A stretch of 64,000 bases of DNA from Dictyostelium discoideum (GCA_000004695.1 CM000154.2:4608001-4672000); one strand, 5' to 3'; positions 29,184 through 31,849 are shown, numbered from the stretch's first letter. Numbers and translations are program-made. Notes: generated by a model from the sequence alone, not told the origin.

Positions 29184-31849
29184 ATGAAATATTTGGTTAC
29201 TATATTTTTATTATTTATTTTGTTTTCAATAATTAAATGTCAACCTCCAAGATGTTTATACAGTGATATTTATGCAAAATCACCACACCCAAACTTAATA
29301 CCCTCTGTAAATTATGTTAATTGGTGGATTTATGAACATTTTAATGATGCTGGTAATGGTGGTTCATCTTTTTATACAGATAGTAATTTAAAGGACCTAA
29401 ATGAAAAAATTTTTGAATTGAGCGATTATGATATGAGAGATCAAAACCAGGAATCTCCAATTACTCAAACATTCAGTCAAGTGAATGATCTTCGATTTTC
29501 AAGTATTTCTTACAATAATGCTTTTGATGACAATTACTCAACAGGAAGTGCACATGAAAAAGGATTTTTTATTTGGAACGAAGAAGGTGGTATTCATGTT
29601 ATTCATAGTATTCCCCACACACCTCAAACTATGGATGGTTTCTTTTTACATACCTCCAAAGATAAATATTTACAACATTCAATTTGTATTACATTGTTAC
29701 CAGCTGAATTAGATATTATTCCTAAATTTTTGATTTATACCAACCCTGCAATTGGAACAATAAATTCTAAAGTGATTACTGGTTCAATCTTAAGTGCTTT
29801 AACAAACAAAAGTACAAAAGATGTTAATAATGTTGACACAACCGATATATTGGTTACAGTAACAGATGATAATATTATAGCTACGAAACAGTTTACAGAA
29901 ATCGATACAATTATTGAGGGTAATTTTATTGTTGATAATTTTATTGTTGGTCAAACTCTCCCAAGAATTATTAAAATTCTACAATGGGCTAAATTGGTAT
30001 GTATAATTATTTTTATTATTGTTTATTTTATAGTTGTAAATTATACTCACTCAAATTATACCACTTTTTGTATTTCCCAGGCTCGTCATGTGGCTGGAAA
30101 TATTGAATTTTCATCAGATCTGGATCCAAATTTACCAAGCTATCATTATTATAGAGCAAAGAAACATTCATTTGGTGAATACTTTGTTCAAACTCCAATA
30201 CCAGAAAAGAGAAATATTATTGCTGGAACCTCTCAGCATAACTTGGCAAGAATGAATAACATTGAAATTTTATGGCAATACATCGGTAAATATTACAGTA
30301 GTATTTCAAAATGGATGTCTCAAACAATGACTTCAAATAAAGGATTTGCTAATAATGTAGTTCCTGGTAATAATGTAGATACAACTTTCTCATTAACATT
30401 TAAACTCAATTATCCATTCCTAAATGACCATCAACAAAGAAGTGCCTCAAAAGATCATTCAAAGTTCATGTATGGTACCAGTAACAATGGTCAACAAAAA
30501 ATCTTTTGTATAGGTGGTTTAAATTGGCAAAGAGTTCAAGGTAGGATAAAATAATATTATTATTATTATTATTATTATTATTATTATTATTATTATTATT
30601 ATTATTATTATTATTATTATTATTATTATTATTATTATTATTATTATTATTATTATTATTATATATTTTTTATTATTTATTATTTATTATTTATAATTAT
30701 TACTAATTAATCGTTAATTTGAATATTTTTATTGATACAATACACTTCATAATTAGAATCAAGAGGAGGGGCAGCTTTTTGCATGGATGGTATTGGTTAT
30801 TTAGTTGATTATATGAAAAGACATGTATCATGGACAAGAAAAGGAATAGCCCAAGATCAAGTAAAATCTGGTGTCCCACAATCAACAGCAGGAACTGAAA
30901 TAGACTTTTCTTGGATAGAGGATCAATTGAACATCCAAAAACTATATATTCCAATGGGATTCGAAATTTTAATACCAACAACACAAAATCCACTTCCAAA
31001 AAGAGTTATTGAACCAGCACAATCAAATTATAAAACCAAAAATGCTCCACTCCTTGTTGAACCTGTACAGACACCATTAGGTGCCTTAAGTTATAAATCT
31101 GAGGCAATTTCAATCGATGTATTCCCAAGTGTAAAAGATAAAGTACATATATGTCTACAATCATCCCAATGTCCGTATGAATTATCAGCTAAATTTAATA
31201 TCATTTCAAATATAAATCTTATTGTTACTCCTTATCAAAGAGACTCACAATCAGATCCTGTTATGACAATTACCTCCAATCCAATTCCTGCCATTTCAGT
31301 TTCACAAGTATTGAAGAATAATTATTTCTCTTCTATGGCCACTGAAAAAATAATTCAACTAAGTGGTAATAATTTTGGAGTTTATTTACAAAAGACTCAA
31401 CAAACTCTAGATGATTTTAAATTTCAATTTCCACAATCAAGTATCAATACCCCTTGTACTATTTCACCAATAGGTAATGATATTTCAATTATGTTTCATG
31501 AAACTTGTGTTGATCAACTTATATTTTGCTTATTTAGTCATTTCCACATGTATTCAATTCAAAATAATAATATACCAGTGTTTATGGTAGATGACCAAGC
31601 TTCATTTTATAATGATGTTACCCAAATTCTTGTAAGATAATATTCAATTACAAATATAAAATGCACAAAACTTTTTAATCATTATATTCTAATACCATTA
31701 TTAATTTTTTTAAATAGAATGAATTCTTTCCAAACATTCCAGATATCAGTAGATGTGTTGAACAACCACCTTCACCTGGAACTGCAATGACTGATAACGA
31801 TGAAATTAATGAAGTGATGGGATCTCAGGCCATGACTGATGAAATTTAA
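29184..31849 (+). CDS. DNase II-like (lysosomal acid deoxyribonuclease family) protein with a C-terminal extension of about 430 aa, in 4 exons.
   Basis: Signal peptide MKYLVTIFLLFILFSIIKC. SAHEKGFFIWNEEGGIHVIHSIPHTP aligns with the DNase II [25 protein letters not shown] motif. KDHSKFMYG...KIFCIGGLNWQ...SRGGAAFC aligns with DHSKW...CVGDMNR...RGGGTLC. Introns lie at 29997-30080, about 30542-30746 (containing (ATT)n) and 31633-31715. Confidence 0.8.
30553..30660. repeat. (ATT)n microsatellite in an intron.
   Basis: About 36 ATT units. Confidence 0.9.

Follow-up and report, generated by a model that had tools for sequence, protein, structure and literature searches.

The DNA considered here is a stretch of 64,000 nucleotides from Dictyostelium discoideum (GCA_000004695.1 CM000154.2:4608001-4672000), hereafter referred to as the window, and the element under study is the interval 29184-31849 on its + strand. 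As judged from its sequence, this interval is one real gene of four exons, D. discoideum DDB_G0290837, which begins with an ATG at 29184 and ends with a stop codon at 31847-31849, the same outer limits as those given by a first-pass annotation of the window. The predicted product is a DNase II homologue in which the catalytic core is fused to a long, genus-restricted C-terminal extension. The features of the gene, in positions of the window and residues of the product, are as follows.

29184..29996, + strand: exon 1, residues 1-271, with the signal-peptide-like N-terminus, the first half of the DNase II/PLD (phospholipase D) fold and most of the variable insert.
29184-29243, + strand: signal-peptide-like N-terminus, residues 1-20, ending at 29243.
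29550..29564, + strand: first HxK motif, A-H124-E-K126-G, with H124 and K126 invariant (n=28).
29766..29969, + strand: hypervariable insert that separates the two PLD-like halves, residues 195-262; no other block of the nuclease domain is less conserved in the family.
29997..30080, + strand: intron 1, 84 nucleotides, GTATGT..AG, in frame and without a stop codon, GC content 20%.
30081..30540, + strand: exon 2, residues 272-424 and the first base of codon 425; second PLD half, including the second HxK motif.
30453..30467, + strand: second HxK motif, D-H397-S-K399-F, with H397, S398 and K399 invariant.
30541..30756, + strand: intron 2, 216 nucleotides, GT..AG, 6% GC, mostly (ATT)n.
30757..31631, + strand: exon 3, residues 425-716, with ES-R427-GGAAF-C433, the helix and strand of residues 434-452 and most of the extension.
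30762-30782, + strand: RGGAAFC, residues 427-433, end of the DNase II core, with R427 and C433 invariant.
30840, + strand: start of the lineage-specific extension at residue 453, the projected end of the Pfam domain being near residue 453.
31632..31717, + strand: intron 3, 86 nucleotides, GTAAG..AG.
31718..31849, + strand: exon 4, residues 717-759 and the stop codon; acidic tail (isoelectric point, pI, 4.05) with the nearly invariant C729.

The exon map was re-derived by exact matching, the open reading frames (ORFs) and the splice sites being taken from the sequence. The spliced product of 759 amino acids is 100% identical, with 100% coverage, to the DDB_G0290837 protein (P0001) of D. discoideum AX4, which is recorded as XP_635551.1, EAL62052.1 and UniProt Q54FI9 under the title 'hypothetical protein'. 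The region is AT-rich, with exon-like blocks of ~27-33% GC lying between stretches at 6-20% GC. Intron 2 interrupts codon 425 within the conserved ..NWQ..Q/ESRGG.. element (the slash marks the intron), and WTRKGIAQDQVKSG follows directly after RGGAAFC, in frame. Intron 1 keeps its position in each of the five genes mapped, that of D. purpureum among them; the position of intron 2 is kept in four of the five (also in the genes for P0002, P0008 and D. purpureum P0031, with P0020 lacking it) and that of intron 3 in the close paralogs. The first-pass annotation had recognised two introns only and placed them at 30542-30746 and 31633-31715; these boundaries are off by 1-10 nucleotides from introns 2 and 3 as listed above, an exon beginning at 30747 would run into a TAA codon, and the in-frame intron at 29997-30080 had been missed. 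The gene model of DDB_G0290837 is sound; the gene is to be named as that of a DNase II family protein, and the extension merits a domain family of its own. A second copy of the gene was looked for in the window and none was found, and near the gene neither a tRNA nor an Rfam family was found. Microsatellites of the (ATT)n/(TTA)n type, which are typical low-complexity Dictyostelium DNA, account for ~35 units within intron 2, and another run is present at 32140-32215, ~300 bp downstream of the gene. Since intron 2 carries such a long microsatellite, its length is likely to vary between strains.

The catalytic core and the extension are, on comparative evidence from protein and gene sequences, to be regarded as one protein that arose by fusion. 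The first-pass annotation had offered either a fusion protein or a mis-joined neighbouring gene, and only the former part of this proposal stands. One stretch of the match to the DNase II domain in Pfam, residues 388-435, spans intron 2 and thus the junction of exons 2 and 3, while in exon 3 the RGG..C element and the extension run on uninterrupted. The paralog DDB_G0270642 has no intron 2, and its DHSK motif, its RGGGAFC element and the whole extension are encoded in one ORF of 478 codons (L002:4024-5457). The same two-part architecture is found in more than 25 proteins of ~740-830 amino acids from D. discoideum strains, D. citrinum, D. dimigraforme, D. firmibasis and D. purpureum. Taken together with the confidence of the full-length structural model, namely a predicted template modelling score (pTM) of 0.78, these observations exclude a mis-join for practical purposes. 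The contrary view, in which a DNase II gene for ~430 amino acids ending near 30550 was wrongly joined to a separate gene at 30757-31849, draws on the in-frame TAA at 30552-30554 that would be met on retention of intron 2, on an ATG at 30783 that starts an ORF of 285 amino acids, on the lack of a Pfam domain in the extension and on a few entries from other strains that are split or truncated (P0012/P0038, P0016, P0029). However, a product ending at 30554 would lack two invariant elements of the DNase II domain, R427-GG and C433, the intronless paralog reads from the core through the extension, the architecture is kept down to D. purpureum, the predicted fold is compact and the extension never occurs alone among 1.84 billion representative proteins, so that a pair of wrongly joined neighbours is most improbable.

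The membership of the protein in the DNase II family was examined with Pfam, where DNase_II (PF03265; PLD superfamily) is matched with 108.9 bits and E=3.8e-31 (cut-off 23) in two stretches, residues 44-227 and 388-435. This agrees with the first-pass annotation, which had described a DNase II homologue with a long C-terminal extension and had located AHEKG, DHSKF and RGGAAFC at the positions listed above. Among 28 aligned family proteins, the residues H124, K126, H397, S398, K399, R427-G-G and C433 are invariant, with identity elsewhere being as low as 27-33%, and the x of the first HxK motif is E in 12 members and A in 16. In a profile alignment to the 5I3E sequence, the DNase II of Burkholderia thailandensis (BthDNase II), the first motif AH(A/E)KG falls on GHTKG (H100/K102), the second motif DHSK on DHAK (H279/K281; DHAKW) and R427-G-G of exon 3 on the R305 element, so that the conserved Arg of RGGG is kept; the numbering of BthDNase II is that of PMC5449587, where H100 and K102 are catalytic. 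Taken alone, the local alignment of the first motif to BthDNase II is weak, but its register agrees with that of the ..HS.P motif further on and with the superposition of the folds.

The relationship to solved DNase II enzymes required a comparison of folds. With the full protein as query, phmmer found no matching PDB sequence, profiles matched 5i3e weakly (E ~0.1), and word-indexed homology searches with the single sequence or with an N-terminal profile returned the Dictyostelium family only and never reached canonical DNase II. The predicted fold is pseudodimeric, PLD-like and superposable on solved DNase II. Residues 434-452 form a helix and a strand with invariant Y439, L440, Y443, R446 and V448, and at residue 435 the Pfam profile stands at position 308 of 326; a DNase II domain would thus probably have its usual C-terminal boundary here. 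On these sequence and profile comparisons, DDB_G0290837 is classed as a DNase II homologue with intact catalytic residues.

Whether the enzyme would be active bears on a reading in which the protein is a DNase II-like pseudo-enzyme that has lost catalysis and serves, for example, to bind DNA or as a scaffold. Such a role could be suggested by the Glu at x beside the nucleophilic His, by changes at the equivalents of W282 and R298 of BthDNase II, by the presence of a large additional domain in an expanded family with fast amino acid change, and by the precedent of inactive DNase II-like expansions (PMC4148230). The first-pass annotation had likewise regarded the first motif as nearly inactivated; that description does not hold, as H124 and K126 are present, are invariant in the 28 members and align with H100/K102, and only the free x position differs. 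By definition x is unconstrained in the PLD-type motif H-x-K, where it may be any residue (PMC4148230, PMC5449587), and within the Dictyostelium family it varies between E and A. Both His, both Lys and the Arg of RGG are invariant in a family that diverges to <30% identity, which is the pattern expected under selection for catalysis. The residues W239, W282 and R298 have been called a conserved structural triad by the authors of the BthDNase II structure (PMC5449587), and the triad is treated here as a supporting feature of DNase II and not a defining one. Since all the catalytic residues are strictly invariant in a fast-evolving family, the alignment argues that catalysis is probably retained, from which we infer an enzymatic activity, and a pseudo-enzyme is considered unlikely.

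The extension comprises 326 residues after RGGAAFC, fewer than the ~430 estimated in the first-pass annotation, and ~306 of them lie beyond the projected Pfam end near residue 453; the lineage-specific part is thus about residues 453-759. A Pfam scan of the extension matched no domain. An AlphaFold2 model of the full-length protein, built with 28 family sequences, has a mean predicted local distance difference test score (pLDDT) of 78.7 and a pTM of 0.78; most of the extension lies at pLDDT 85-93 and residues 738-759 are below 50. When modelled alone, the extension gives a pTM of 0.80. As the full-length value is close to that of the extension alone, the models suggest that the core and the extension are held in a fixed, compact arrangement. 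The predicted fold of the extension consists of a beta-rich part at residues ~490-600 and an alpha/beta part at ~605-720, followed by the low-confidence acidic tail. In the C-terminal alignment C557, C563, C658, C675 and C682 are invariant and C729 is nearly so, and the mature protein, with an expected mass of ~82 kDa before glycosylation, would contain 10 cysteines and two N-x-S/T sequons. The conserved cysteines, and their number in the mature protein, fit a disulfide-bonded lumenal or secreted protein. The N-terminus, MKYLVTIFLLFILFSIIKC-QPP, resembles a signal peptide, and its hydrophobic stretch at residues 2-18 is conserved in the family.

The distribution of the extension was assessed by an exhaustive HMMER profile search of the 1.84 billion representative proteins, which returned six matches, all to this Dictyostelium family; by this search the module appears to be confined to the genus Dictyostelium and never to stand alone. 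Within the genus, the architecture and the six cysteines are kept across species. Comparison of the extension with solved structures gave no convincing structural match. Many of the weak matches of the alpha/beta subdomain were to zincin-type peptidases, but the family has no HExxH motif and a zincin-like metallopeptidase fold was rejected; the likeness is a lead only, and the subdomain is probably non-catalytic. A basic DNA-binding role was ruled out by charge, and simple binding of DNA by the extension, which is not basic, is unlikely. The nuclease part, for its part, carries a charge of ~+12 at pH 5.

The same properties were weighed for the possibility that the extension is a pro-domain or an inhibitor, with the module or the acidic, DNA-mimicking tail being cleaved by lysosomal proteases to activate the nuclease. 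The tail is indeed acidic and disordered (pI 4.05, pLDDT <50), the extension is not basic and packs on the core in the model (pTM 0.78), and its weakly zincin-like alpha/beta part, lacking HExxH, is probably non-catalytic. However, there is no evidence of a processing site, six conserved cysteines and purifying selection over 280 residues exceed what is usual for a disposable pro-peptide, and human DNase II is a single contiguous chain (PMC5449587), so that the family offers no precedent. A pro-domain or an inhibitor therefore has only a small chance of being the right description.

DDB_G0290837 is a member of a multigene family restricted to Dictyostelium, in which duplication has been repeated and divergence quick. 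The D. discoideum paralogs DDB_G0267616, DDB_G0291033, DDB_G0270642 and DDB_G0270848 share the two-part architecture, the catalytic residues, the cysteines and the intron positions, except that DDB_G0270642 is without intron 2 and that DDB_G0270848, like a few strain-specific entries, is truncated or split. Relatives in D. purpureum, D. firmibasis, D. citrinum and D. dimigraforme have the same architecture and invariant residues. The members share between 26% and 88% identity with DDB_G0290837, the deeper paralogs have A at x, and all the paralogs and relatives are annotated only as hypothetical or uncharacterised. Split, truncated or RGGG-less entries were noted for P0012/P0038 (ACTFIR_002797/002798), P0016, P0029 (DDB_G0270848, 514 amino acids) and P0035 (ACTFIZ_011380, 661 amino acids); these may be pseudogenes or errors of gene models in the newer strain assemblies. 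A locus of D. firmibasis (L005; CM069767.1, 4512084-4528537) carries a tandem array of no fewer than three DNase II-like genes, all on the + strand and the first of them cut by the edge of the locus, with a gene for 230-244 amino acids on the - strand between each consecutive pair.

The ratios of nonsynonymous to synonymous substitution rates (dN/dS) were calculated by the Nei-Gojobori method on reconstructed coding sequences verified by translation. The values below are based on small counts and ignore the extreme AT bias and possible gene conversion, and pairs involving P0020 and P0031 are saturated at synonymous sites.

DDB_G0290837 and DDB_G0267616 (88% amino acid identity): core 2.3 (32.5 nonsynonymous/3.5 synonymous); insert 195-262 8.3 (26 nonsynonymous/1 synonymous); extension 0.68.
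D. firmibasis tandem pair P0014 and P0015: core 3.5; insert 8 nonsynonymous/0 synonymous; extension 0.94.
Older pairs (DDB_G0290837 with P0003, DDB_G0290837 with P0008, and P0003 with P0008): core 0.58-0.70; insert 0.93-1.8; extension 0.49-0.73.

For DDB_G0290837 and DDB_G0267616, the overall dN/dS of 1.4 rises to 2.6-2.7 when the nuclease domain is taken by itself, and the whole nuclease part (residues 1-433) differs from the extension with p=0.02 in Fisher's test; the extension stays at ~0.5-0.9 in all the pairs tested. Intron 1 is identical at 84 of 84 positions between these two genes, and the differences in the insert are all point substitutions, many of them changing charge. These values are suggestive, though not proof, of diversifying selection on the nuclease domain and above all on the insert at residues 195-262. 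The same ratios above 1 against the 88%-identical paralog might be expected of a recent duplicate that is still intact, no longer selected and drifting towards a pseudogene. Such decay should give a uniform ratio near 1, whereas the nuclease part lies well above this value and the extension, with 0.68, below it; the frame of 759 codons and the canonical splice sites are intact, no catalytic or cysteine position has changed and the pattern recurs in the independent D. firmibasis pair. A decaying duplicate is thus very unlikely.

The reading preferred here, to which as a whole we assign a probability of about three in four, is that one four-exon gene encodes a secretory DNase II enzyme with a fused, non-catalytic C-terminal module and a role in the breakdown of prey DNA. 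For the enzymatic activity, the cellular location and the role of the extension, we infer the following course of events. The protein would enter the secretory pathway and act as a metal-independent acid endonuclease through the two-histidine PLD mechanism of DNase II (PMC5449587). His124 would attack the phosphodiester to give a covalent intermediate and His397 would activate the water by which the intermediate is released, with Lys126, Lys399 and Arg427 assisting catalysis. The core would be permanently fused to a disulfide-stabilised, family-specific module made up of a beta-sandwich, an alpha/beta subdomain and an acidic, disordered tail. This module is predicted to pack on the core as a rigidly attached, non-catalytic part, the role of which is likely accessory, in stabilisation, in targeting or in shaping of the substrate cleft. 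The putative substrate is prey (foreign) DNA in phagolysosomes, or outside the cell in the medium, and digestion of such DNA would fit a repeatedly duplicating, fast-diverging family in a bacterivorous amoeba.

Several points weigh against this reading. The structural triad of BthDNase II is altered, the equivalent of W282 being F400 (F/L/M/I in the family) and that of R298 being W420 (W, or Y in two members), and it is unusual to find a Glu beside the nucleophilic His. The signal peptide was recognised by eye, and pTM is the one measure from which the packing of the core on the extension was read. The extension is acidic to neutral (pI 5.3; tail pI 4.05) and not an obvious DNA-binding module, which makes its role a guess, and the dN/dS above 1 relative to the closest paralog could partly reflect relaxed constraint. 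Finally, in the literature no paper was found that mentions DDB_G0290837, the four paralog identifiers, Q54FI9, XP_635551 or EAL62052, or that describes this architecture, and a search on DNase II and Dictyostelium yielded general papers only.

The genomic context of the gene was examined on both sides. Upstream lies a divergent ORF of 245 amino acids, 27758-28495 on the - strand, with which a giant IPT/TIG-domain gene of ~2,450 amino acids begins; the gene reaches down to ~20184. Its first exon, this ORF, shares 87-91% identity with the N-termini of TIG proteins that are 2,442-2,462 amino acids long, and the ORF 20184-22889 of the same minus-strand neighbour matches Pfam TIG with E=9.5e-30. 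TIG and DNase II-like genes are also paired head to head at the DDB_G0291033 locus (L004) and twice in a D. cf. discoideum locus (L006); such a pairing was not seen at the DDB_G0267616 locus (L003), and the small - strand genes of the D. firmibasis tandem locus show no detectable similarity to the TIG first exon of the window. A near-perfect palindrome of ~575 bp, 28557-29131, fills the space that separates the DNase II-like gene from its divergent TIG neighbour, with outer arms of 169 nucleotides at 28557-28725 and 28963-29131 that are 99% complementary and inner arms at 28706-28797 and 28894-28985. The palindrome matches, in both orientations and with 86-95% identity, sequences just upstream of DDB_G0267616 (L003, ~2635-2997) and DDB_G0291033 (L004, ~2811-2991); most of the blastn matches of this AT-rich intergenic sequence were low-complexity noise, and the analysis kept only the best ones, those to the paralog promoters. 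The palindrome may serve as a bidirectional promoter of symmetric structure, or be a foldback element resembling a miniature inverted-repeat transposable element (MITE) that was carried along with the duplications. Downstream of the gene, an island of ~28% GC is present at 32260-32400 between very AT-rich stretches, where only small ORFs on either strand and no Rfam match were found.

A more speculative proposal, and an improbable one when all its parts are taken jointly, is that the family consists of conflict-driven effectors, used in defence against bacteria or in strain discrimination and not in housekeeping disposal of DNA. Its members would be secreted or phagosomal acid nucleases in which the insert 195-262 and the nuclease domain are under recurrent diversifying selection and the new C-terminal fold targets or gates the enzyme; they would have been co-duplicated, and perhaps co-regulated through the palindromic divergent promoter, with the giant IPT/TIG surface proteins. 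The head-to-head arrangement of TIG and DNase II-like genes recalls the allorecognition pair tgrB1/tgrC1, which is also head-to-head.

The gene and its Pfam domain are already present in the public databases, as 'hypothetical' or 'uncharacterized'. The protein set out above as a secretory DNase II with a fused module is a variant of a known enzyme family and not a new kind of system, and its interest lies in the genus-restricted C-terminal fold and in the signs of fast adaptive evolution. As a rule, DNase II is a small lysosomal enzyme with a single domain, of which there are one or a few copies; Dictyostelium, a professional phagocyte, has a multigene DNase II family in which each member keeps the catalytic residues and a folded, cysteine-rich module. 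If active, these proteins would provide a tractable model for the manner in which an accessory domain alters a PLD-type nuclease, and for nucleases in conflicts between amoebae and bacteria or among amoebae.

Comparison with the known DNase II systems places the family as follows. The canonical lysosomal enzymes (human alpha and beta, Caenorhabditis elegans NUC-1 and the Drosophila enzyme; PF03265) share with it the two HxK motifs, the Arg of RGGG, a signal-peptide-like N-terminus and the cysteine pair flanking the ..NW/NR..RGGG.. element, and the same chemistry is expected, namely cleavage of DNA at acid pH, independent of metal ions and leaving 3'-phosphate ends. They are, however, single-domain proteins of ~350-360 amino acids, whereas DDB_G0290837, with 759 amino acids, adds a folded, cysteine-containing C-terminal module of ~300 residues and has a hypervariable insert between the PLD halves. 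Smaller differences are found in the motifs: at x, the first HxK has E (or A) in the Dictyostelium family and T/S in canonical DNase II, the residue after the second HxK is F/L/M in place of W, and RGGG is preceded by 'NW' in place of 'NR'. The B. thailandensis enzyme (PDB 5I3E/5UNB; PMC5449587) has only 12-15% identity to DDB_G0290837; it is a homodimeric, U-shaped clamp of 346 amino acids without the C-terminal module (PMC5449587), and its W239-W282-R298 triad is not kept in the Dictyostelium family. The DNase II-like family of Trichinella spiralis and plancitoxin-1 (PMC4148230) have in common with the present family a lineage-specific expansion, secretion, which for the Dictyostelium proteins is a prediction, and an organism engaged in biological conflict. 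Almost all the Trichinella DNase II-like members are without HKD motifs (PMC4148230) and the Trichinella proteins carry no comparable C-terminal domain, whereas every member of the Dictyostelium family keeps both motifs.

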